DNA of 58,590 nucleotides from Gemmatimonadaceae bacterium (GCA_036556765.1 DATBIU010000008.1:1-58590), one strand, 5' to 3'. Positions 3,273 to 46,969 are shown, numbered from the stretch's first letter. Made by a program: numbers and translations. Notes: a model not told the origin generated them from the letters alone.

Positions 3273-4952
3273 ATGCGGTTATCTGCTCTACTCGCCGCCC
3301 TGACCCTTCCCTGCGTGGTCGGAGCGCAGGAAGGGACGTGGGCGCTGACCAATGCCCGCATCGAGACGGTCGCCCGCGGCGTGATCGAGCGTGGCACGAT
3401 CGTGATTCGCGATGGGTTGATCGAAGCCGTCGGCCCCGATGTACGACCGCCGGCGGACGCGCGCATCGTCGATCTCGCCGGAAAGCACGTCTTCCCAGGG
3501 CTGATCGACCTCACCTCGACGCTCGGCCTCCCCAGCGCGCCGGCGGGAGGAGGACAGGGCGGCCAGCAGGGAGGCGCCGCGCAGGGGAGCGCCACGCCCG
3601 TGCGCAACGTGGGGCTCGAGCCCGGCCGCGTCATCGCCGACGAGCTCAGGCCCAGCGCATCGGACCTGCGGACCGCGCGTGATGTCGGCATCACGACCGT
3701 GCTCGTCGCGCCATCGCGCGGCGCCTTCCGCGGGCTCTCGGCCCTTGTGCCGCTGCGGGAGGAATCGGCGATTCGGTACATCGTGAAGTCCCCAGTCGCC
3801 TTGCACATGGGCTTCGAGGGCGCACAGGGGTCGGGCTTCGGCGGACGCTACCCGGCGACGCTGCTCGGCGTCATCGCGTACGAGCGGCAGTCGTTGTACG
3901 ACGCGCGCCACCACGCGGCGCTACAGGAGCGCCATCGAGCCGGAACCCGGGGGGCGGTGCGGCCATCGTACGATGCCGACCTCGATGCCCTGGTGCCGGT
4001 GGTGCGTGGTGCCGTTCCGGCGTTCTTCTCCGCCAATCGGGAGAACGAGATTCGCCGGGCGGTGCGCATCGGCGATGAGTTCGACCTGAAGCTCGTGGTC
4101 GTCGGGGCAACTGAGGGATTTCGCGCGATCGACGCGCTGAAGCGCGCCGAGGGCGTGGTGGTGTCGCTGGACTTTCCCCGCCCGACCGCGGTCACAGGGT
4201 GGTCGTATCGCTCCACGCAGCGGCATGCCCTCGACGACAGCGCCGCTACCGACAGCGCCGTGCGCCGGCTGCTCGAGTCGAATGCCGCGACGTTGCACGC
4301 CGCCGGCGTGCGATTCGCGCTCGCGTCAGGCGGCGCGCGGCCGGGTGAGTTTCTCGCCAACGTTCGCAAGGCGATCGCCGCCGGACTGCCGCGTGACGTC
4401 GCGCTCCAGGCGCTCACCGTGCGCGCCGCCGACGTCGCCGGTGTGGGGACGCAACTCGGCAGCATCGAGGCCGGCAAGATCGCGAACCTCGTGGTCGCCG
4501 AGCGCGATATCCTCGGTGACAGCGCGAACGTGCGGATGGTGTTCGTCGATGGCATTCGCCACGAAGTCATTGCCCCACCCGCGAGCGAGCGGCGGCGCGG
4601 GGGTGGCGCGGGCGCGCGCGGAGGCGAGCGCGAGGACGCGGGCGAAATGGCGCGCGTCGCCGGAACGTGGGACCTCACGGTGACATCGGCGCAAGGGGAC
4701 AACCAGGCAAGCATGACGGTCACGCAATCCGGCGCGACGCTCGACGGTACGATGGCGACCGAGCTGGGCACGGTGCAGGTGACGGATGGCCGCGTCACCG
4801 GGCAGCGGGTCACGTTCACGATCACGGTGCCCATCAGCGGTCAGACGACGGCGATCGTTTTTCGCGGAACGGTCGACGGGAACCGCATGACCGGGACCGC
4901 CGATCTCGGTGCGATGGGCAGCGCGACGTTTACGGGGGAGCGACGGCCTTGA
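3273..4952 (+). CDS. Amidohydrolase-family protein (paralog 1, no HxH) with a C-terminal beta-rich extension
   Basis: Has a signal peptide and the segment IVIRDGLIEAVGP...VFPGLIDLTSTLGL. The usual D-x-H-x-H position reads DLTST. Confidence 0.8.
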   Translation: MRLSALLAALTLPCVVGAQEGTWALTNARIETVARGVIERGTIVIRDGLIEAVGPDVRPPADARIVDLAGKHVFPGLIDLTSTLGLPSAPAGGGQGGQQGGAAQGSATPVRNVGLEPGRVIADELRPSASDLRTARDVGITTVLVAPSRGAFRGLSALVPLREESAIRYIVKSPVALHMGFEGAQGSGFGGRYPATLLGVIAYERQSLYDARHHAALQERHRAGTRGAVRPSYDADLDALVPVVRGAVPAFFSANRENEIRRAVRIGDEFDLKLVVVGATEGFRAIDALKRAEGVVVSLDFPRPTAVTGWSYRSTQRHALDDSAATDSAVRRLLESNAATLHAAGVRFALASGGARPGEFLANVRKAIAAGLPRDVALQALTVRAADVAGVGTQLGSIEAGKIANLVVAERDILGDSANVRMVFVDGIRHEVIAPPASERRRGGGAGARGGEREDAGEMARVAGTWDLTVTSAQGDNQASMTVTQSGATLDGTMATELGTVQVTDGRVTGQRVTFTITVPISGQTTAIVFRGTVDGNRMTGTADLGAMGSATFTGERRP

Positions 4953-7743: not shown

Positions 7744-7912
7744 GGGATCAGGGGATCGGGGGATCGGGGGATCGGGGGATCGGGGGATCGGGGGATCGGG
7801 GGATCGGGGGATCAGGGGATCAGGGGATCAGGGGATCAGGGGATCAGGGGATCAGGGGATCGAGGGGTCGAGGGCGCCGAATCGGCCCTCGATCCCTTGA
7901 TCCCTCGATCCC
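7744..7912. repeat. Class-3 tandem-repeat hairpin, 8-nt units: about 16 G-rich units against about 3 C-rich units
   Basis: Units run GGGATCAG x1, GGGATCGG x7, GGGATCAG x6, then gatcgaggggtcgagggc. A short loop follows, then gccctcgatcccttgatccctcgatccc. The element fills the whole convergent gap between the stops at 7740 and 7916. Confidence 0.9.
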
Positions 7913-9046: not shown

Positions 9047-9152
9047 GGGGTCGAGGGGTCGAGGGGTCGGGGGATCGCGGGCCGCTCGAGCGGAACGGAC
9101 TCTGCGAATCCCTTGATCCCTTGATCCCTTGATCCCTCGATCCCCTGACCCC
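9047..9152. repeat. Class-3 tandem-repeat hairpin, 8-nt units, in a divergent intergenic region
   Basis: Left arm is ggggtcgaggggtcgaggggtcgggggatcgcggg. Right arm is gaatcccttgatcccttgatcccttgatccctcgatcccctgacc. Confidence 0.85.
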
Positions 9153-10133
9153 TTGGCTTCCTACGACCTCACCTCCTGCCCCGTCTGCGCCTCCACCGAC
9201 GCCGACGAAATCGCGACCGCGGACGACGCGCGCGCGGAAGTGGAGGCGTTGTGGGAATTCCACCAGCGGCGGCTCCGGCCCGGCACCCCACCGCGTGCCC
9301 TCGCCGACCGCGTCACCTTCTCGCAGGACCCACCCCTGCGCCTGGCGCAGTGCCGGCAATGCTCCCTCGTCTATCGCAATCCACGCGAGCGTGCGACCGA
9401 GCTCGTCGAGACGTACGCCGGCGAGATGCCCGACGACGCCACGCTTCGCACCCTGCACGAGAATCAACGCCGCGCCTATCGCGCACAGGTCCGGCGGCTC
9501 GAGCGCGCGCACGGCCGCCGAGGATCGGGCCTCGAGGTGGGGAGCTATGTCGGCGCATTCCTCGCCGCCGCGCGGGACGCCGGCTGGGAGTTCGAAGGGC
9601 TCGACGTCAACGAGCGCGCTGCCGCCTTCGCGTGCCGTATGGGCTTTCGTGTCACTGTTGGCGAGCTCGACGCCATGAAGGGCCGTCGCTTCGAGGTCGT
9701 CGCCATCTGGAATACCTTCGAGCAGCTGCCCGATCCGCGCGCCGCGGCGGTAGGTGCGCGAAGCCTGCTGCAGCAGGGCGGAACGCTGGCCATCCGCGTC
9801 CCGAACGGTCAGGCGTACGCCACCCTTCGCCGCACGCGTCGCCCTCTGCTCGCGCAGCTCGCGCGGGGTGTAATGGCGCACGACAATCTGCTCGCGTTTC
9901 CCTACCGCCACGGGTTTACGACCGGGTCGCTCACCCGTCTTCTTAGTGATGCCGGCTTCGGGGATCTTCGGTTCTTTGGCGACGCTCTAGTGCCGATTGG
10001 CGACCGCTGGACGCGCCGCTGGGCGCGGCTGGAAGAGCAGGTGGTCAAGGCGCTGTTGCGGGGCGCCGCGAGAAGCAGCAGGTTAGGACGGCGATACTCG
10101 CCCTGGCTCGAAGCTTACGCGCGTGCACGATGA
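9129..10133 (+). CDS. Class I SAM-dependent methyltransferase with an N-terminal Cys4 zinc ribbon
   Basis: CPVC...CRQC zinc ribbon followed by GLEVGSYVGAFLAAARDAGWEFEGLDVN and FEVVAIWNTFEQLPDP. The listed TTG start lies inside the repeat, and a TTG at 9153 is an alternative. Confidence 0.75.
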   Translation: MIPRSPDPLASYDLTSCPVCASTDADEIATADDARAEVEALWEFHQRRLRPGTPPRALADRVTFSQDPPLRLAQCRQCSLVYRNPRERATELVETYAGEMPDDATLRTLHENQRRAYRAQVRRLERAHGRRGSGLEVGSYVGAFLAAARDAGWEFEGLDVNERAAAFACRMGFRVTVGELDAMKGRRFEVVAIWNTFEQLPDPRAAAVGARSLLQQGGTLAIRVPNGQAYATLRRTRRPLLAQLARGVMAHDNLLAFPYRHGFTTGSLTRLLSDAGFGDLRFFGDALVPIGDRWTRRWARLEEQVVKALLRGAARSSRLGRRYSPWLEAYARAR

Positions 10134-13319: not shown

Positions 13320-13320
13320 A

Positions 13321-13460
13321 GGGCCAAGTGCCAGGGGCCAGGGGCCAAGGGGGCTGAGGAATGCGGCGCGGCTTTGCCGCTGCCGCTCATCAGATGAGCG
13401 AGCGGCCTTCGGCCGCTCGCCTTTCCATCCCCCTGGCCCTTGGCCCTTGGCCCAGGGCCC
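13321..13460. repeat. Class-1 tandem-repeat hairpin (GGGGCCA-like 7-mers) with a long structured loop
   Basis: The arm gggccaagtgccaggggccaggggccaaggggg (13321-13353) faces cccccctggcccttggcccttggcccagggccc (13429-13460). Confidence 0.85.
13398..13420. terminator. Perfect GC hairpin nested in the loop of the class-1 element
   Basis: gcgagcggcc-ttc-ggccgctcgc gives a 9-10 bp stem. Confidence 0.5.
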
Positions 13461-16437: not shown

Positions 16438-17373
16438 ATGCTGAGCATCGATCTCGCGGGACGTCGCGCGCTCGTGGCCGGCGTCGCCGACGACCGGGGA
16501 TACGGATTCGCGATCGCGAAGGCGTTGGCGGAGGCGGGCGCGTCGATCGTTCTCGCGACGTGGCCGCCCGCGCTCAACATCTTCCTGAATCTGCTGGAAC
16601 GCGGGAAGATCGACGAGGCGCGCGCGCTCTCCGATGGACGACGGCTCGAGTTCGAGAAGATCTATCCCCTCGATGCCGCCTTCACGACACTGAGCGAGGC
16701 GACACCCGACGTCCTCGACAACAAGCGCTACCGCGAGGTGGGCGACTTCTCGATCGAGGGGCTCGCGCAGCGGCTCACCGCGGACTTCGGGGAGCGGCCG
16801 ATCGACATCGTCATCCACTCGCTCGCGAATGGTCCCGAGGTCAAGAAGCCGCTCATGGACACGAGCCGTGGCGGCTACCTCACCGCGATGGGGGTGAGCG
16901 CCTACTCGATGGTCGCGATGGTGGGACGCCTCGCGCCCCTCATGCGCGATGGTGGCGCATTTCTGTCGCTGACCTACATGGCCAGCGAGCGCGTCATTCC
17001 GGGGTACGGTGGCGGCATGAGCTCGGCGAAAGCCGCACTCGAAAGCGATACCCGGGTGCTCGCCTACGAGGCGGGACGCAAGTTCGGCACACGCGTGAAC
17101 TGCATCTCCGCCGGCCCGCTCGCGTCACGCGCCGCCAGCGCCATCGGCATCATCGAGGCGATGGTCGACTACTGCTCGGCCAACTCACCCCTCACGGAAC
17201 CGCTGTCCCCCACCGAGGTCGCGAACACCGCCGCCTTTCTCTGCAGCCCTCTCGCGAGCGGCATCACCGGCACCGTGGTCTACGTGGACAAGGGATATCA
17301 CTCGATGGGCATGGCGGTGGAGCAGGGTCAGGGGCCAGGGGCCAAGGGCCGGCCCTTGGCCCTTGACCCTTGA
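16438..17373 (+). CDS. fabI: Enoyl-[acyl-carrier-protein] reductase (NADH), FabI type
   Basis: Contains ALVAGVADDRGYGFAIAKALAEAGA and YGGGMSSAKAALE (Y-x6-K). The C-terminal tail EQGQGPGAKGRPLALDP is encoded by the class-1 repeat. Confidence 0.85.
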   Translation: MLSIDLAGRRALVAGVADDRGYGFAIAKALAEAGASIVLATWPPALNIFLNLLERGKIDEARALSDGRRLEFEKIYPLDAAFTTLSEATPDVLDNKRYREVGDFSIEGLAQRLTADFGERPIDIVIHSLANGPEVKKPLMDTSRGGYLTAMGVSAYSMVAMVGRLAPLMRDGGAFLSLTYMASERVIPGYGGGMSSAKAALESDTRVLAYEAGRKFGTRVNCISAGPLASRAASAIGIIEAMVDYCSANSPLTEPLSPTEVANTAAFLCSPLASGITGTVVYVDKGYHSMGMAVEQGQGPGAKGRPLALDP

Positions 17374-17378
17374 CCCTG
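17323..17378. repeat. Class-1 tandem-repeat hairpin, near loop-less palindrome
   Basis: cagggtcaggggccaggggccaagggcc is directly followed by ggcccttggcccttgacccttgaccctg. It spans the fabI stop (17373) and abuts the convergent stop at 17383. Confidence 0.9.
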
Positions 17379-19525: not shown

Positions 19526-19526
19526 A

Positions 19527-19634
19527 GGGGCTCAAGGTGCTCGAGGTAGTCGAGGTGCTCAAGGTGCTCGACGTGCTCGAGGGAAAGCACCCGCACCCTC
19601 GAGTACCTCGAGCACCCTGAGCACCTCGAGCACC
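19527..19634. repeat. Class-4 tandem-repeat hairpin, 9-nt units (GGTGCTCGA / TCGAGCACC)
   Basis: Left arm is ggggctcaaggtgctcgaggtagtcgaggtgctcaaggtgctcgacgtgctcgaggg. Right arm is ccctcgagtacctcgagcaccctgagcacctcgagcacc. Confidence 0.9.
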
Positions 19635-19636
19635 TT

Positions 19637-20411: not shown

Positions 20412-21374
20412 ATGTCCGCCCTGCGTGTCCCCGTCGTCGCCTTCGCCGCCCTTACTCTCGTCACCGGCTGCGCGCGGGACGAGACCGAAGCCACCGGCGA
20501 CAGTGCCGCCGGCGTTGCCGCTCCGGCCGAGTTCGCCCGCGCCGCCAGCATCCAGGGCGGGTTCAAGACCCCAGAGTCCGTGCGGTTCGACCCAATCGAC
20601 GATGTGTACTTCGTCTCGAACATCAATGGGTCCCCGGATCAGAAGGACAACAACGGATTCATCTCGCGCGTGCGCGCCGAAGGCGGAGAGATCGATTCGC
20701 TGATGTTCATCGCCGGCGGCCGGGGGGGCGCCACGCTCCACGCGCCGAAGGGGCTCGCGATAACCGGAGACACCCTGTGGGTCACCGACATCGACGCCGT
20801 GCGCGCATTCGACAAGAGGACCGGCAGCCCCATCGCGTCCTATCCCGTTCGAGGCGCGGTGTTCCTCAACGACATCGTGCCCGGCCCCGACGGGGCGCTT
20901 TACATCACGGACACCGGCGTTCGGTTCACCGACTCGGGGGTCTCACATCCCGGTCCCGACCGCATTTTCAAGCTCACTCGCGCCGGAGAGATATCAACCG
21001 CTTTCCAGTTCAAGCCGGCCATCGGCCCGAACGGCATCGCGTGGGACGACGCCAAGCAGCAGTTCATCGTTGGGGCCTTCGCCGAGAACCAGATCGTGGC
21101 GTGGAAGCCCGGTGATTCGACCACCACGACCCTCGCCACCGGCAAGGGTCAGTTCGATGGCATCGAGCGGCTCGCCGACGGCCGTGTGCTCGTCTCGACG
21201 TGGACCGACTCGAGCATCTACGTCCTCGACGGCTCCGCCCTCGTCCGCGCCGTTCCAGGCGTCCCCAGCCCGGCGGACATTGGCGTGGACACCAGGCGCA
21301 ATCGCGTCGCTATACCGATCTTCGGGGGAGATCGCGTGGAGCTGTTCGCGATCCCGGCCAAGGACGGAATGTGA
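20412..21374 (+). CDS. Beta-propeller lipoprotein (SMP-30/gluconolactonase/LRE- or NHL-like)
   Basis: Lipobox LVTGC. Repeated blade motifs include LWVTDID, LYITDTG and VLVSTW. Confidence 0.6.
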   Translation: MSALRVPVVAFAALTLVTGCARDETEATGDSAAGVAAPAEFARAASIQGGFKTPESVRFDPIDDVYFVSNINGSPDQKDNNGFISRVRAEGGEIDSLMFIAGGRGGATLHAPKGLAITGDTLWVTDIDAVRAFDKRTGSPIASYPVRGAVFLNDIVPGPDGALYITDTGVRFTDSGVSHPGPDRIFKLTRAGEISTAFQFKPAIGPNGIAWDDAKQQFIVGAFAENQIVAWKPGDSTTTTLATGKGQFDGIERLADGRVLVSTWTDSSIYVLDGSALVRAVPGVPSPADIGVDTRRNRVAIPIFGGDRVELFAIPAKDGM

Positions 21375-23848
21375 TCAGGCACCGGCTCGCGCTCGCCGCG
21401 GCGGCGCTCGTCACCGCCTCGGCGTGCGCGCGGAGCGCCGAGCAACCGCAGGCTGCCGACGATGCGCGTCGCCTGCCGACGGGCGTGCGCCTCGACCCGG
21501 CCGGGCGGAGCGTCGACGTGGGGTCCATGCCGCTGGCGATGACGCTCTCGCCGGACGGTCGCCACGTCGTGCTCCTGCTCAACGGCTGGCGCGAGCAGGG
21601 GCTGCAGGTTCTGGATCGTGCGACCGGGGCGGTCGTCCAGACGGTGCCGCAAAAAGCCGCGTTCATCGGTCTGGCGTTCTCACCGCGCGCGAACGTGCTG
21701 TTCGTCTCCGGCGGCAACCAGGACGTCGTCTACGGCTACGACTGGAGCAACGGTCGCGCGACTCTTCGCGACTCGGTGATCCTGGCGCGGAAGCCGGACC
21801 CACGTCGCTCCGGAACGCGCTACCCCGCCGGTCTCGCGGTGTCGCCCGACGGCACTCGCCTCTACGTCGCCGAAAACCTCGCTGATTCGCTGGTGGTGAT
21901 CGACCTCGGCTCGGGTGCCATCGTCTCGCGCCACGCGACGGAGCGATACCCGTACGGTGTCGCGGTGGCGCCTAACGGCGAGGTGTACGTGTCGGCCTGG
22001 GGCGGGCATACGGTGTCGGTCTTCACACCCAACGAGCACGGCGGGCTCGACGACGGCGGCCGCATTCGCGTCGGCCGGCATCCGTCCGCGCTCGCGCTCA
22101 ACGCCGATGGCTCGCGTCTCTTCGTCGCGTCGGGCAGCACCGATCGCATCGCGGTGGTCGACACGCGCGCGAAGCGTCTCGTGAAGCATCTCGATGACCC
22201 GCCGCCCGAGGGTCCCGCCGAGGGGAGCACGCCGAACGCGCTGGCGCTCTCGGCCGACGGCAAGCGGTTGTTCGTCGCCGAGGCCGACGCGAACGCCGTG
22301 GGCATCTTCGATCTGTCGGCGGTGGCGTCGAACGACACGACCGCTCGCGGTGACGACCAGCTCGCCGGGCGCATCCCAGTCGGCTGGTATCCGACGGCGC
22401 TCGCGCTCGCCGGCGACACGCTCTGGGTGGTGAACGGCAAGGGACACGGCACGTCACCCAACCCGGACTACCCGCATCCGGGCACCGGCACGCACCTCTC
22501 GCGTCCGACATCGTACACCCTCGGCCAGCTCTCCGGCACGGTGACGATCCTGCCCAACGCCGGAGTGCGCGGCCGCGACCTCGACCAGTTCAGCGAGCGG
22601 GTGGCGCGCGCGAACAACTGGACCTCGAGACGTCCGCCCACGTCGCCGTATCCACCGATCGAGCACGTCATATACATCATCAAGGAGAACCGCACCTACG
22701 ATCAGGTGCTCGCCGACCTGCCGCAGGCGGACGGCGACACGTCGCTGCTCTTCTTCCCGCGATCGGTCTCGCCCAACCATCACGCGCTGGCCGAGCGATT
22801 CGGCATCTACGACCGGTTCTTCGTCAACGCGGAGGTGAGCCCCGACGGTCACAACTGGTCGGTCGCCGCATATACCACCGACTACCTCCAGAAGACGGTT
22901 CCGTCGAACTACTCGGATCGCGGTCGTACCTACGACTATGAGGGCACGAACCGCTGCACCAGCCAGCCATGCGAGGTGCCGGAGGATGACGTGGCCGAGC
23001 CGGCGAGTGGGTACCTGTGGGATCTGGCGCAGCGCGCCGGGATCACGTTCAGGAACTACGGCGAGTTCGTCATCCCGGAAGGCATCGATCCCGAGTCGCG
23101 GATGCCGGCCGGGTACAAGGGGAGCAAGCCATTCCTCGCCGCGAACACCAACCGCGAGTTTCCCGGCTACGACCTCAATATCACCGATCAGCGTCGCGCC
23201 GATGTGTTTCTCGCCGAGTTCGCGCAATTCGTCCGCGACGGGCGGATGCCGCGGCTGATCGTGCTGCGGCTACCTAACGACCATACGGCGGGCGCCCGCG
23301 CCAACGCGCCGACGCCGCGCGCCTACATGGCGGACAACGATCTGGCGCTGGGGCGCATCGTCGAGGCGATCTCGCGGTCACGGTTCTGGCGCAGCACGGC
23401 GATCTTCGTCGTCGAGGATGACGCGCAGAACGGCCCCGACCACGTCGACTCGCACCGCACGCCGTTCTTCCTGATCTCCCCCTGGGCGCGGCCGGGGGTG
23501 CACCATCGCTTTACGAATACCACCGACGTCGTCGCGACGATGGAGGAGATCCTCGGGCTCGGCTCGTTGTCGCAGTTCGACTACTACGGCCGTCCGCTGC
23601 GCGACGTCTGGACGGAGTCCCCGGACATCGCACCCTATCGCGCGCTGACGCCGGCCGTTTCGCTCGATGAGCGCAACCCGGCGCAGGGTCGCGGTGCCCG
23701 CGAATCGGAGCGGCTGGATCTGGCGTTCGAGGACATCGCCGACGAGGACCTGTTCAACCAGATTCTGTGGCGGGCGATCAAGGGGGAGCACGTTCCTTAC
23801 CCGGGCCCCACGCGGATGTCGGCATTGGAGTGGAAGCGAGCGAAATGA
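21371..23848 (+). CDS. Fusion of a YncE-like beta-propeller with a phosphoesterase (PLC/AcpA-type) domain
   Basis: GTGA overlap with the previous gene. The N-terminal half has propeller repeats (LSPDG.., VSPDG.., LNADGSRLFVA, LSADGKRLFVA). The C-terminal half has EHVIYIIKENRTYDQV and VEDDAQNGPDHVDSHRT. Confidence 0.8.
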   Translation: MIRHRLALAAAALVTASACARSAEQPQAADDARRLPTGVRLDPAGRSVDVGSMPLAMTLSPDGRHVVLLLNGWREQGLQVLDRATGAVVQTVPQKAAFIGLAFSPRANVLFVSGGNQDVVYGYDWSNGRATLRDSVILARKPDPRRSGTRYPAGLAVSPDGTRLYVAENLADSLVVIDLGSGAIVSRHATERYPYGVAVAPNGEVYVSAWGGHTVSVFTPNEHGGLDDGGRIRVGRHPSALALNADGSRLFVASGSTDRIAVVDTRAKRLVKHLDDPPPEGPAEGSTPNALALSADGKRLFVAEADANAVGIFDLSAVASNDTTARGDDQLAGRIPVGWYPTALALAGDTLWVVNGKGHGTSPNPDYPHPGTGTHLSRPTSYTLGQLSGTVTILPNAGVRGRDLDQFSERVARANNWTSRRPPTSPYPPIEHVIYIIKENRTYDQVLADLPQADGDTSLLFFPRSVSPNHHALAERFGIYDRFFVNAEVSPDGHNWSVAAYTTDYLQKTVPSNYSDRGRTYDYEGTNRCTSQPCEVPEDDVAEPASGYLWDLAQRAGITFRNYGEFVIPEGIDPESRMPAGYKGSKPFLAANTNREFPGYDLNITDQRRADVFLAEFAQFVRDGRMPRLIVLRLPNDHTAGARANAPTPRAYMADNDLALGRIVEAISRSRFWRSTAIFVVEDDAQNGPDHVDSHRTPFFLISPWARPGVHHRFTNTTDVVATMEEILGLGSLSQFDYYGRPLRDVWTESPDIAPYRALTPAVSLDERNPAQGRGARESERLDLAFEDIADEDLFNQILWRAIKGEHVPYPGPTRMSALEWKRAK

Positions 23849-23894
23849 GTGCTCAGGGTGCTCAGGGTGCTCAGGGTGCTCAGGGTGCTCAGGG
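23849..23894. repeat. Class-4-like 9-nt array (GTGCTCAGG x5), G-rich arm
   Basis: Five near-perfect units start directly after the stop at 23848. They are inverted relative to the array at 24226-24298. Confidence 0.9.
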
Positions 23895-23980
23895 GCTAAC
23901 CCAGTCGCGTTACGCGCCGTAAGATTTTGGTTCTTCGGGGAATGCGGGATTGCCTGACGTCAGCTGCGGTCCGCAAGCGG

Positions 23981-24179
23981 CCACGAACAGCTGAACTGCT
24001 AAACGGCCCCGAATGACAACACGAATTACGCGAATGGCGTCCGTGCGCGTCGAACTCGGCTCTCCAGGAACCACCACTGTGTCGTTGGGCTCGCGCGGGG
24101 GCGGTTGCACCGCGCCGAGAGCGATTCGGGCAATTCGTGTTTGTCATTCGGGTGATTTGGCAGTTCGGCTGTCCGTGGC
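23981..24179. other. Rod-like imperfect inverted repeat of about 47 bp per arm; candidate MITE or structured sRNA
   Basis: The arm gccacgaacagctgaactgctaaacggccccgaatgacaacacgaatt (23981-24027) faces aattcgtgtttgtcattcgggtgatttggcagttcggctgtccgtggc (24132-24179). Inner pairing continues with cgaactcggc / gccgag..ttcg. Local GC is lower than the surroundings. Confidence 0.6.
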
Positions 24180-24225
24180 CCGACACCGCGATCTTTCCCG
24201 GGAATCCCCGATGAGCCAGAATGTT

Positions 24226-24298
24226 TCGAGCACCTCGAGCACTTCGAGCACTTCGAGCACCTCGAGCACCCCGAGCACCCCGAGCACCCCGAGCACCC
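24226..24298. repeat. Class-4 9-nt array (CGAGCACYY x8), C-rich arm
   Basis: The sequence tcgagcacctcgagcacttcgagcacttcgagcacctcgagcaccccgagcaccccgagcaccccgagcaccc ends 15 nt upstream of the start at 24314. Confidence 0.9.
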
Positions 24299-24313
24299 TA
24301 ACCAGAGGCCGCA

Positions 24314-25993
24314 ATGCAGACTCCGCAGTATGACGCGATCGTCGTGGGATCGGGCATCTCCGGCGGATGGGCCGCCAAGGAGCTGACCGAGAAAGGGCTG
24401 CGCGTCCTGCTGCTCGAGCGGGGGCGCAACGTCGAGCACGTCAAGGACTACGTCAACGCCACGAAAGGACCGTGGGAGTATCCCCACCGCGGCGGCCGCA
24501 CGCGGGCGATGGAAGAGGCGTATCCCGTCCTCAAGCGCGACTACCCGCTCAACGAGAAGAACCTCGAGTTCTGGGCGTCCGACAAGGATTCGCCGTACAC
24601 CGAGGTCAAGCGCTTCGACTGGTTCCGCGGCTATCAGGTTGGTGGGCGGTCGCTCATGTGGGGGCGGCAGAGCTACCGGTGGAGCGATTTCGACTTCGAG
24701 GCGAACGCGAAGGAGGGCATCGCGATCGATTGGCCCGTCCGGTACGCCGAGCTCGCGCCATGGTACGATCACGTGGAGCGGCATGCCGGGATCTCGGGAT
24801 CACGCGAGCGAATGCCGCAGCTTCCCGACGGACAATTCCAGCCGGCCATCCCGCTCAACTGTGCGGAGGAGGTCGTCGCCGGTCGTCTCGCCAAGCTGTT
24901 CGATGGACGGCGCCGCCTCATCCCCGGGCGGTGCGCGAATGCGACGCAGCCGCTGCCGGGACGACAGGCGTGTCAGTACCGGGATGCCTGCTGGCTCGGG
25001 TGCCCGTACGGCGGCTACTTCAGCACGCAGTCGTCGACGCTGCCGGCGGCCGTCAAGACCGGGCGCCTAACGCTCAAGCCCTTCTCGATCGTCAGCGAGG
25101 TGATCTACGATCGGGACCGCAAGCGGGCGACGGGCGTGCGGGTGCTCGACGCGGTGAGCAACGAGACCGTCGACTACACCGCGCGCGTGGTCTTCCTCTG
25201 CGCGTCGGCCCTCAACTCGACCTGGCTTCTCATGCGCTCGGCCACCGACGTGTGGCCCGGCGGGCTGGGGAGCAGCTCGGGAGAGCTCGGCCACAATCTG
25301 ATGGATCACCACTTCCGCGCCGGCGCCGAGGGGGAGATCGAGGGGCTGGACGACAAGTACGTGTATGGGCGTCGGCCCACCGGGTTCTACATCCCGCGGT
25401 ATCGCAATCTCTTTGGCGAGAAGCGGCCCTACCTGCGCGGATTCGGCTATCAGGGTGGTGCCGATCGCGCGGGCTGGTGGCGAGCGGTGTCGGAGCTGGG
25501 GGTCGGCGGCGCGTTCAAGGACCGGATGGCGCAGCCGGGCGGTTGGGGGATCGGCGCCACGGCGTTCGGCGAGATGCTGCCTAACCACGCCAACCAGGTT
25601 TCCATCGACACGACGAAGACCGACAAGTGGGGGATGCCGGTGCTCAAGATCGACTGCGCCACTGGCGAGAACGAGCGCCTCATGCGGCGGGACATGATCG
25701 CCGACATGGCCGAAATGCTCGAGCAGACGGGCGTGAAGAACGTGAGGACGTTCGACAACGAGTACTTCCCGGGGATGGGAATCCACGAGATGGGGACGGC
25801 TCGGATGGGCCGGGACCCGAAGACGTCGGTGCTCAACAAGTGGAACCAGGTGTGGGATGCGCCGAACGTGTTCGTGACCGACGGCGCCTGCATGGTGTCG
25901 GCCGCCTGTCAGAATCCGTCGCTGACGTACATGGCGCTCACCGCCCGGGCCGCGGATCACGCCGTGAGTGAGCTCAACAGTCGCAACCTCTGA
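24314..25993 (+). CDS. GMC-family FAD oxidoreductase (large subunit)
   Basis: Contains YDAIVVGSGISGGWAAKEL (GxGxxG). Length is typical of the family, and it is paired with a Tat-signal small subunit. Confidence 0.85.
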   Translation: MQTPQYDAIVVGSGISGGWAAKELTEKGLRVLLLERGRNVEHVKDYVNATKGPWEYPHRGGRTRAMEEAYPVLKRDYPLNEKNLEFWASDKDSPYTEVKRFDWFRGYQVGGRSLMWGRQSYRWSDFDFEANAKEGIAIDWPVRYAELAPWYDHVERHAGISGSRERMPQLPDGQFQPAIPLNCAEEVVAGRLAKLFDGRRRLIPGRCANATQPLPGRQACQYRDACWLGCPYGGYFSTQSSTLPAAVKTGRLTLKPFSIVSEVIYDRDRKRATGVRVLDAVSNETVDYTARVVFLCASALNSTWLLMRSATDVWPGGLGSSSGELGHNLMDHHFRAGAEGEIEGLDDKYVYGRRPTGFYIPRYRNLFGEKRPYLRGFGYQGGADRAGWWRAVSELGVGGAFKDRMAQPGGWGIGATAFGEMLPNHANQVSIDTTKTDKWGMPVLKIDCATGENERLMRRDMIADMAEMLEQTGVKNVRTFDNEYFPGMGIHEMGTARMGRDPKTSVLNKWNQVWDAPNVFVTDGACMVSAACQNPSLTYMALTARAADHAVSELNSRNL

Positions 25994-26006
25994 GGGAGTC
26001 ACGTCG

Positions 26007-26714
26007 ATGACTGACCACGAAGACACGCGCCGCGGGATCCATCGCCGCGAGGCCATCCGCCGAGTTGGCCTGATGCTCGGCGGCATCTCCTTCGTCGGCG
26101 GGACGGCGCTGCTGACTGCCTGTGAGCGCGAGCGTCCGGCGGCGGGCGCGTCGCGCATCGGCGAGTTCACCGCCGACGACATCGCTTTCCTGGACGAGGT
26201 GGCGGACACGATGCTCCCGGAGACGAGCACGCCCGGGGCGAAGGCGGCGCGGACGGGCGCGTTCATGGCGCTCATGGTGACGGATACCTATGAGCCGAAG
26301 GACCAGCAGGTCTTCCGCGAGGGGATGCGCAAGCTGAACGAGGCCAGCCGGCAGGCGAACAACACGGACTTCATGTCGGCGACGCCGCAGCAGCGGCTCG
26401 CGCTCCTCGAGACGCTCGATCGCGAGCAGAAGACCTACACCGACGCGCGCGACGCCGCTCGTCGCGAGCAGCGGCCGACCGCCGAGGAGCACTTGCCCGA
26501 TCAGCGGCAGGAGGCCGCACCGGGGACTCCGACGACGATCACCGCCGACGCGCCGGCCCACTACTTCCGGATGATGAAGGAGCTGGCGCTGCTCGGGTAC
26601 TTCACGTCGGAGATCGGCTACACGCAGGCGCAGCGGTACGTCGAGTCGCCGGGGCGGTTCGACCCCTGCGTGCCGTATACGCCTGGCGAGAAGGCCTGGG
26701 CGCCGCATGCCTGA
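26007..26714 (+). CDS. Gluconate 2-dehydrogenase subunit-3-like small subunit with a Tat signal
   Basis: Twin-arginine region TRRGIHRREAIRRVGLMLGG followed by LLTAC. Start at the ATG at 26007. Confidence 0.7.
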   Translation: MTDHEDTRRGIHRREAIRRVGLMLGGISFVGGTALLTACERERPAAGASRIGEFTADDIAFLDEVADTMLPETSTPGAKAARTGAFMALMVTDTYEPKDQQVFREGMRKLNEASRQANNTDFMSATPQQRLALLETLDREQKTYTDARDAARREQRPTAEEHLPDQRQEAAPGTPTTITADAPAHYFRMMKELALLGYFTSEIGYTQAQRYVESPGRFDPCVPYTPGEKAWAPHA

Positions 26715-26723
26715 GTGAAACCC

Positions 26724-26812
26724 GGTGGGCGAGGTCGTCGAAGTGATCGAGGTGGTCGAGGCGCATCCCCTCGAGCACCTCGAGCACCTTGACTCCCTCG
26801 AGCACCTCGACG
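26724..26812. repeat. Class-4 tandem-repeat hairpin, 9-nt units
   Basis: ggtgggcgaggtcgtcgaagtgatcgaggtggtcgaggc faces cccctcgagcacctcgagcaccttgactccctcgagcacctcgacg. It lies between co-directional genes and ends 2 nt before the ATG at 26814. Confidence 0.85.
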
Positions 26813-28579: not shown

Positions 28580-28657
28580 TGCGGACTGCGGACCGCGGAC
28601 TGCGGATTGCGGGCCGCACTCCCCAGAGGCAATCCGCGCTCCGCAATCCGCAATCGG
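28578..28657. repeat. Class-2 tandem-repeat hairpin (GCGGAYT / CGCAATC 7-mers)
   Basis: gatgcggactgcggaccgcggactgcggattgcggg faces gcaatccgcgctccgcaatccgcaatcgg. The right arm ends 8 nt before the TetR ATG. Confidence 0.85.
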
Positions 28658-46878: not shown

Positions 46879-46969
46879 CGGTGCTCGAGGTGCTCGAGGT
46901 GCTCGAGGTGCTCGAGGTGCTCGAGGGGTTTCCCTTGAGCACCTCGAGCACATCGAGCACCTTGAGCAC
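46879..46969. repeat. Class-4 tandem-repeat hairpin, 9-nt units (GGTGCTCGA x5 / TYGAGCACM x4)
   Basis: cggtgctcgaggtgctcgaggtgctcgaggtgctcgaggtgctcgagggg faces cccttgagcacctcgagcacatcgagcaccttgagcac. It ends 2 nt before the ATG at 46972. Confidence 0.9.

Follow-up and report, generated by a model that had tools for sequence, protein, structure and literature searches.

The 465-nt spacer in front of a GMC oxidoreductase gene of a Gemmatimonadaceae bacterium (GCA_036556765.1, DATBIU010000008.1:1-58590; this whole stretch of 58,590 nt is called the window below) is made up of one palindrome nested in another, and the two differ in origin. The outer palindrome is a hairpin with arms built of 9-nt tandem repeats, and the inner one is most likely a non-autonomous element of the MITE type (miniature inverted-repeat transposable element), which inserted in the loop of this pre-existing hairpin. 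Prokaryotic MITEs are shorter than 500 bp, carry terminal inverted repeats (TIRs), are more AT-rich than their host, lie between genes and form stem-loop transcripts (PMC10969869, section 2.1). The insert studied here is about 290 bp long, intergenic and of lower G+C content, has TIRs, folds into a stem-loop, holds no open reading frame (ORF) with a Pfam match and occurs in multiple copies, and its empty site was found in related genomes. A first-pass annotation, made from the sequence alone, had considered a small non-autonomous mobile element in a hairpin loop as one of two possibilities, and this one was supported by the empty sites and by copies at unrelated loci elsewhere.

Layout of the spacer

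The features of the spacer are as follows (none is assigned to a strand; other loci of the comparison are denoted by L numbers):

23849..23894: left arm of the host hairpin, GTGCTCAGG in 5.1 copies (Tandem Repeats Finder, 9-nt unit, 100% matches)
23895..23923: native loop of the host hairpin, GCTAACCCAGTCGCGTTACGCGCCGTAAG, outside the insert and common with the empty-site loci (CTAACCCAGTGGCGCCAGGAGTCGTAAG in L002, CTAACCCAATCTGACCCCTCGCGGTAAA in L001)
23921..23928: left flanking direct repeat AAGATTTT, possibly a target-site duplication that has decayed, and also the T-run adjoining the element end
23929..24218: inserted palindromic repeat element, ~290 bp, absent from L001 and L002; the homology between copies spans GGTTCTTCGGGG to CCCCGATGAGCC
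23929..23978: L-type end, outer TIR GGTTCTTCGGGGAATGCGGGAT followed by the L-specific stretch CCTGACGTCAGCTGCGGTCCGCAAGC (end comparison among copies, TIR alignment)
23979..24038: left inner arm, GGCCACGAACAGCTGAAC...CCCGAATGACAACACGAATTACGCGAATGGC, in which CGAAT occurs three times (inverted repeat, 88% mean pairwise identity among copies, alignments A1 and A2)
24039..24120: variable centre of the core, polarity CTCGGCTCTCC..CTGTGTCGTTGG (69% mean pairwise identity, indels of 1-3 nt)
24121..24180: right inner arm, GCGATTCGGGCAATTCGTGTTTGTCATTCGGG...GGCTGTCCGTGGCC (inverted repeat, 86% mean pairwise identity among copies)
24181..24218: R-type end CGACACCGCGATCTTTCCCGGGAATCCCCGATGAGCC, of which the outer TIR is a part (agrees with the R end of L006/L011 at 31/31 positions and is 94% identical to the one of L016)
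24219..24226: right flanking direct repeat AGAATGTT(T), possibly a target-site duplication that has decayed (sequence and empty-site comparison)
24226..24297: right arm of the host hairpin, TCGAGCACC-type units (CTCGAGCAC, TTCGAGCAC, CCCGAGCAC) in 8.0 copies (Tandem Repeats Finder, 95% matches)

The two arrays correspond to the five left-arm units (23849-23894) and the eight CGAGCACYY units of the right arm (up to 24298) counted in the first-pass annotation. Over 42 nt they show an ungapped complementarity of 76-88%, which varies with the register, and their pairing includes one A.C mismatch per unit on the plus strand, equivalent to G.U on the minus strand. The enclosed core (23895-24225, 331 nt), previously described as about 330 nt of lower G+C content, indeed had 60.7% G+C against 68.3% in the whole window, a drop which is real but modest; its first part, 23895-23923, however, turned out to be native loop and not insert. 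The window arms, being 330 nt apart, no longer match perfectly: the eight right units are mostly of the CTCGAGCAC type, common genome-wide, and the five left ones are GTGCTCAGG. Homogenisation of the arms may depend on their proximity.

Empty sites in related genomes

Comparison with the orthologous spacers of relatives revealed three states:

Short spacer: L003 and L017-L021 (GMC protein 90-91% identical), 49 nt, no repeats, neither hairpin nor core
Plain hairpin: L002 and L001 (GMC protein 93-94% identical), 153-154 nt, tandem-repeat hairpin with a loop of ~37 nt, no core
Hairpin with insert: window, 465 nt
Coordinates of the orthologous spacers: L002, 4263-4416; L001, 4375-4527; L003, 5952-6000

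The plain hairpin in L002 has an orthologous left arm (GTGCTCAG(T/G)G units), is built of the same GTGCTCAGG / CCTGAGCAC units as in the window and folds with -88 kcal/mol (z = -8). The start of the loop is also common to the window (CTAACCCAGTCGCG..CGTAAG) and L002 (CTAACCCAGTGGCG..CGTAAG), and in a shorter form, CTAACCCAGT..GTAAG, it is shared by L001 and L002 alike. After this shared arm and loop start the window has ~290-300 additional bases, and then the right arm resumes (alignment A3), which limits the insert to at most 23924-24223. A single copy of the flank stretch is kept at the empty sites (AAGTCTCT in L002, AAATCTT in L001). The states seen in the relatives indicate the order of events, namely a short spacer, then a hairpin and finally an insertion into the hairpin loop; thus, the three successive states date the insertion relative to the hairpin and demonstrate quick gain and remodelling of the tandem-repeat hairpins. 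In evolutionary terms the host hairpin is young, and changes in one of its arms go along with changes in the other. At the same site L001 contains different, mutually complementary units of the GGTCGAGG/CCTCGACC type.

Presence/absence polymorphism was observed at two orthologous sites. Apart from the window compared with L001/L002, it concerns the spacer between a GntP gene and a cyclase gene, which contains a full copy in L005 (copy L005b), while L022, with a cyclase 99% identical to that of L005, has the L end joined to the R end and lacks the core.

Dispersed copies of the element

No second copy was detected within the 58.6-kb window by blastn at word size 7, which only returned the element's own inverted repeat, by nhmmer with the family profile or by blastn-short with the L and R ends. 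Since the window had no second copy, the 20-21-nt stretch conserved between both arms was scanned across the species-representative genomes of GTDB. The 20-mer gave six matches on five contigs of one Gemmatimonadaceae metagenome-assembled genome (MAG), OF_bin.40 (JAICNG01), which represent at least five loci (L004, L005 with two copies, L006/L011 and L007), i.e., several dispersed copies per genome at the level of the family. Two contigs were matched by a related pattern in a metagenome collection, and one further copy was present in a sister MAG (L022; JAICHA01; element positions 2941-2999 and 3789-4034). The search for copies of the core suggested in the first-pass annotation was negative for the window and positive for Gemmatimonadaceae MAGs and metagenome contigs. 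Counting that of the window, ten copies are available; the core is complete in seven of them, and the other three are truncated by contig ends. According to blastn and the nhmmer profile, the homology extends over 200-290 bp, with a core identity of 73-84%.

Three copies of OF_bin.40 lie within 70 nt of a contig end, as is the case for repeats that break assemblies. The contigs ending inside the element are L006 (1-135), L011 (2512-2646) and L007 (1-150); L006 and L011 share ~135 identical nt followed by similar, non-identical flanks, which are reminiscent of one arm of a further tandem-repeat hairpin (TGCAGTTGCAGTTCCTCTGTGAG...).

No match came from blastn against plasmid and phage collections or from the pattern scan of viral contigs. 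Several matches outside of the family were discarded: those in five Acidobacteriota MAGs were due to chance, since the 21-mer fell in a conserved coding region with third-codon variation and without extension; in one Bacteroidetes MAG the similarity, also a chance one, did not go beyond the 21-mer; and a weak nhmmer match in L019 (E = 8e-4) was rejected on inspection.

All copies are intergenic and stand in either orientation relative to the neighboring genes. In L015, L007 and L004 a terminator-like hairpin with its T-run stands immediately before the element end, and in L016 this end comes after a hairpin of -23.9 kcal/mol and T7; in the window the L end is placed after GATTTT within the hairpin loop. 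Depending on the copy, the T-run adjoins either the L or the R end. These positions point to a possible insertion preference for T-runs beside hairpins, that is, for terminators and hairpin loops. In L005, two copies of opposite orientation (3395-3680 and 4436-4690) flank the cyclase (PF04199) gene and fill both of its spacers. The cyclase ORF of L005/L022 continues for ~20 codons into one copy and has its TGA stop inside the arm, and the stop codon of the GntP gene lies within the L end of the other L005 copy.

Ends, arms and centre of the insert

The window termini recur in L005a, L006/L011, L016 and L015, and the homology between copies ends at common points. The left end of the window insert, ATTTTGGTTCTTCGGGGAATGCGGGA, aligns with the reverse complement of its right end, CATTCTGGCTCATCGGGGATTCCCGGGA, so that TIRs are present, with the outer consensus GG[T/C]TC[T/A]TCGGGGA[A/T]T; a further end sequence beside the GG[T/C]TC[T/A]TCGGGG form is GGCCACGGACAGC. 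The subterminal parts are unlike each other: the longer L end closes with ..GCTG[C/T]GGTCC[G/C]CAAGC and the shorter R end is CCGGGAAAGATCGCGGTGACGG.

Between the two ends lies a core of ~200 bp, GGCCACGG to CCGTGGCC, consisting of two 60-nt arms with three CGAAT motifs each and of a centre of ~80 bp. The arms (23979-24038 and 24121-24180) are 73% complementary without gaps; for 23981-24027 against 24132-24179, where the first-pass annotation had estimated about 85% by eye, the value was 82% with gaps. The inward continuation of the pairing, also noticed there, was recovered at 24050-24060 / 24114-24124. Among the six full cores compared, the arms are 86-88% identical and the centre 69%, hence the arms are constrained as sequence, and the difference points to constrained sites rather than to uniform decay. 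Most indels of the centre have lengths that are not divisible by three, and the two ORFs overlapping the element, 24013-24333(+) and 23896-24186(-), had no Pfam match.

The CGAAT/ATTCG motifs (24008-24036 and 24123-24152 in the window) have starts 13 and 9 nt apart and are nearly invariant across the copies; GGGGAAT/GGGAAT also recurs at the outer ends of the element. The motifs look like repeated binding sites for a putative protein and, together with the conserved arms, might be recognized by a mobilising enzyme. The L-specific stretch (23955-23978 in the window, also in the L ends of L005a, L005b, L015 and L016) can pair locally with the start of the adjacent core arm into a small hairpin with a GCAA/CAAG loop and resembles, in direct orientation, the far terminus of the core. 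The way in which core and outer ends came together may have left its trace here.

Target sites and mode of movement

A MITE-like element of this kind would be moved in trans by an enzyme encoded elsewhere. Several points weigh against such an origin. A clean target-site duplication is lacking: in the window, AAGATTTT and AGAATGTT on the two flanks form a degenerate 8-9-bp repeat with 5/8 matches, and L015 has no flanking repeat, so that of the duplications which the first-pass annotation had proposed to look for there is at most a possible, degenerate one in the window and none in L015. Direct repeats are known to decay in older MITEs (PMC10969869). Neither a transposase nor a parent insertion sequence (IS) with matching ends turned up, albeit no search was aimed at transposases. 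The 58.6-kb window includes only one copy, and the two contigs retrieved from the metagenomes suggest that the family is small. With 73-84% identity the copies are old, so that any current mobility would be hypothetical. Finally, the core might have been precisely deleted in the L001/L002 lineage instead of being inserted in that of the window; this is less parsimonious and would even so imply a separable unit.

The lack of a convincing target-site duplication would also be expected if the same dispersed repeat were moved as single-stranded DNA by an HUH/Y1 enzyme (of the REP/REPIN-RAYT or IS200/IS605 palindrome-associated type), instead of being a MITE of a DDE transposase. Elements moved in this way insert beside a short specific sequence or a hairpin without target duplication, and the insertion precisely at the 3' edge of hairpin-side T-runs or in a hairpin loop, as well as the palindromic structure throughout the element, fit this. 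However, the element has recognisable TIRs and a size far above that of REP units, its ends lack a conserved GTAG-type tetranucleotide, and the T-run is not located beside one constant end. No RAYT/TnpA gene was seen among the called neighbors of the copies, although no dedicated search was made. Movement by an HUH/Y1 enzyme is therefore considered unlikely, and a MITE-like element is preferred.

A possible parent of such a MITE is offered by the ISL3 family. The two outer termini, GGTTCTTCGGGG and GGCTCATCGGGG, are similar to inverted repeats of ISL3 elements, for example GGCTCTTCGCGG of ISArsp7 (PMC6305408), and the degenerate 8-bp repeat in the T-rich site of the window is in line with the 8-bp direct repeats produced by ISL3 elements, some of which are AT-rich, such as TTTTTAAA for ISPst2a (PMC6305408, Table 3). 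In contrast, L015 has no 8-bp repeat. As the likeness spans just 8-9 of the first 10 bases, the ISL3 parentage is only a lead.

Orientation of the core

The core has a clear polarity (nhmmer scores of 181-206 bits in one orientation and 111-130 in the other), and it was found both ways with regard to the two ends, L and R:

L-core(+)-R: window, L016, L004, L006, L011 and L007 (six copies)
R-core(+)-L: L005a, L005b and L015 (three copies)

Both configurations occur within one MAG and form no separate clusters in the pairwise identities. An origin of the two orientations as two subfamilies from one ancestral inversion was thus not supported, albeit six sequences are too few to settle this. The pattern resembles that of invertons, such as fimS and the Mpi-controlled regions of Bacteroides, in which a segment of one to two hundred bp stands within inverted repeats, the repeat consensus is present at several loci and both orientations are found. 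Accordingly, the core could be an invertible DNA switch of a multi-copy inverton family, with a recombinase encoded elsewhere flipping a segment of ~80-200 bp between the inverted 60-nt arms and altering the read-out toward the neighboring genes, here the GMC operon. We regard this as very improbable: the orientation differs between paralogous copies and not within one locus, the sole locus available from two strains (L005a, L022) having the same orientation in both; no promoter-like site was found in the element by the consensus scan of the window and four other copies; the immediate neighbors encode no recombinase domain; and the 60-nt arms are far longer than inverton repeats usually are. 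Moreover, occasional homologous recombination between the long inverted arms would give the same picture and would explain the flips of the core.

The same orientations, together with the absence of the core alone from a strain with a 99% identical cyclase and the hairpin-loop and terminator T-run sites, are also what would be expected if the ~200-bp core were a module by itself, which could insert, be excised or flip without the outer ends and had an affinity for the tops of hairpins and for sites close to terminators. If true, this would make it a structure-targeting or invertible multi-copy element and not a plain MITE. We find it unlikely: the L022 junction, GTGGTCC|CGTCACC, is the exact crossover between the 9-10-bp direct repeats CCGTGG[T/C]CCC of L005b, so the core could have been lost from L022 by simple deletion, a reading no less probable than that of a target still unfilled, and the locus known from two strains showed no orientation change. 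The proposal that the core-less junction of L022 is a small hairpin with a loop serving as the core target was not supported, since its fold is no better than those of shuffled sequences (z = +1.2).

RNA fold and transcription

Because a palindrome is nested in a palindrome, the whole spacer folds as one 456-nt rod (23849-24304), with a minimum free energy of -262.5 kcal/mol for the plus and -263.7 kcal/mol for the minus strand. Compared with dinucleotide shuffles (-182 +/- 6.6) this corresponds to z = -12.0 and -12.7, respectively, which is far beyond chance and agrees with the long rod described in the first-pass annotation.

Such stability, the RNAalifold consensus of 72 pairs common to six copies and the existence of MITE-derived small RNAs (sRNAs) in other bacteria (PMC10969869) would be compatible with a gene for a long rod-shaped sRNA, 6S-like or other, whose copies are paralogous RNA genes. 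This second possibility of the first-pass annotation is, however, extremely unlikely in view of the remaining evidence. Rfam 15 gave no match in the window at the gathering score, none at E <= 10 in 23700-24450 and none in the loci of four other copies, and no tRNA or tmRNA was matched. A consensus scan found neither promoter-like (sigma-70-like) nor terminator-like sites on either strand of 23600-24500, and no sigma-70-like sites in the four other copies; in particular, a short G+C-rich stem followed by a T-run, as in intrinsic terminators, was absent from this region on both strands. Both strands fold equally well, and compensatory changes were present in only 5 of the 72 pairs, with the arms conserved as sequence, as predicted for a DNA palindrome with protein-binding arms and not for a structurally selected RNA. 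Furthermore, the copies stand in either orientation relative to the neighboring genes, often right after a terminator, and close relatives in which the flanking operon is retained do not have the element.

A MITE-like element without transcription signals of its own would probably be carried passively inside a read-through transcript in the window. Read-through transcription seems likely because the flanking genes are co-directional and separated by just 49 nt in the hairpin-less relatives. The long duplex could then affect processing or stability of the mRNA; such effects of MITEs have been reported elsewhere (PMC10969869). If the rod indeed influences how the phosphoesterase-GMC transcript is processed, this would be an example from nature of operon expression being rewired by a mobile element.

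Relation to known repeats

The closest parallels are MITEs that are palindromic over their whole length, such as Correia/NEMIS of Neisseria and QMITE2 of Coxiella (PMC10969869), which share with the insert a size below 500 bp, absence of coding capacity, TIRs, intergenic location, multiple copies, lower G+C content, a predicted long stem-loop transcript, insertion polymorphism between close relatives and the ability to insert into other repeats. The insert differs from them by the absence of sequence matches to known elements (Rfam, plasmids, phages), by the lack of a clean target duplication (TA in Correia, 7-9 bp in QMITE2), and by having 60-nt inner arms, triple CGAAT motifs and two unlike subterminal ends. 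The likeness does not include an IHF site, a promoter or a role of RNase III.

ERIC/IRU and YPAL-type repeats (PMC10969869) are also imperfect palindromes in transcribed intergenic spacers whose own transposase is not known; they have size variants due to gain or loss of internal segments, and their copy number varies greatly between related genomes. Unlike the insert, they belong to enterobacteria, a different phylum, without any sequence similarity to it, and location beside terminator T-runs is not a described feature of ERIC. ERIC is 127 bp long, about half the size of the insert. REP/REPIN repeats are palindromic units of ~20-40 nt, usually in inverted doublets, with an associated RAYT gene, in contrast to the ~290 bp and 60-nt arms found here.

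No literature describing interspersed repeats of Gemmatimonadaceae or Gemmatimonadota was found in a full-text search. Therefore, this would be the first MITE-like palindromic repeat family described for Gemmatimonadota, a widespread and little-studied soil phylum. The family accounts for contig breaks in MAG assemblies and is usable as a strain marker. For annotators it calls for caution: the rod should not be called an sRNA, and ORFs should not be extended into the element, as happened with the cyclase and GntP genes of L005/L022. The parts most worth following up are the separable core with its two orientations and the putative preference for terminators and hairpin loops.

Genomic setting

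The genes around the spacer and the short tail in front of the GMC gene are as follows:

21200..23848, plus strand: upstream gene with beta-propeller (SGL/NHL) and phosphoesterase domains (ORF list; Pfam PF08450, PF04185; gene order kept in L001-L003)
24298..24313, plus strand: unpaired tail with the likely ribosome-binding site CTAACCAGAGGCCGCA before the GMC start (last 8 nt of the fold unpaired)
24314..25993, plus strand: GMC oxidoreductase gene, first downstream (Pfam PF00732, PF05199; ATG at 24314)
25968-26714: Gluconate_2-dh3 subunit gene, after the GMC gene (Pfam PF13618)

The ORF and Pfam calls agree with the earlier placement of the element directly upstream of a GMC operon. The first repeat unit immediately adjoins the TGA stop of the upstream gene (23846-23848), and the rod fills the 465 nt from this stop to the GMC start codon. 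The AGAGG motif, 7 nt ahead of the ATG, remains outside of the rod, and AGAGGA is in the same position in L001 and L002. An exact look-up of the GMC protein of the window gave no record. Its 120 best homologs have identities of 84-94%, and all those with an organism name belong to Gemmatimonadaceae/Gemmatimonadota. The contigs of close homologs keep the gene order SGL-like, beta-propeller/phosphoesterase, GMC, Gluconate_2-dh3 subunit and LPG_synthase_TM.

The window contains many other short tandem arrays with 7-, 8- or 9-nt units, each followed by its complementary array, which form spacer hairpins, for example, at 7744-7912, 9047-9155, 13320-13460, 17325-17377, 19526-19635, 26724-26810, 28580-28655 and 46880-46969. 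Three of these are built from the same 9-mer family as the hairpin studied here (GGTGCTCGA / CCTCGAGCA). Nested tandem-repeat hairpins were also observed in the GntP-cyclase spacer of other Gemmatimonadaceae (L023, 2766-3000; L024 and L025, 2785-3000), where AACGGC x 6 / GTTGCT arms surround CGCAGAGGG x 3 / CTCTGCGCT arms with a loop of ~70 nt. This nested hairpin folds with -147 kcal/mol (z = -11), and a palindrome within a palindrome is, therefore, a recurring layout in the group.

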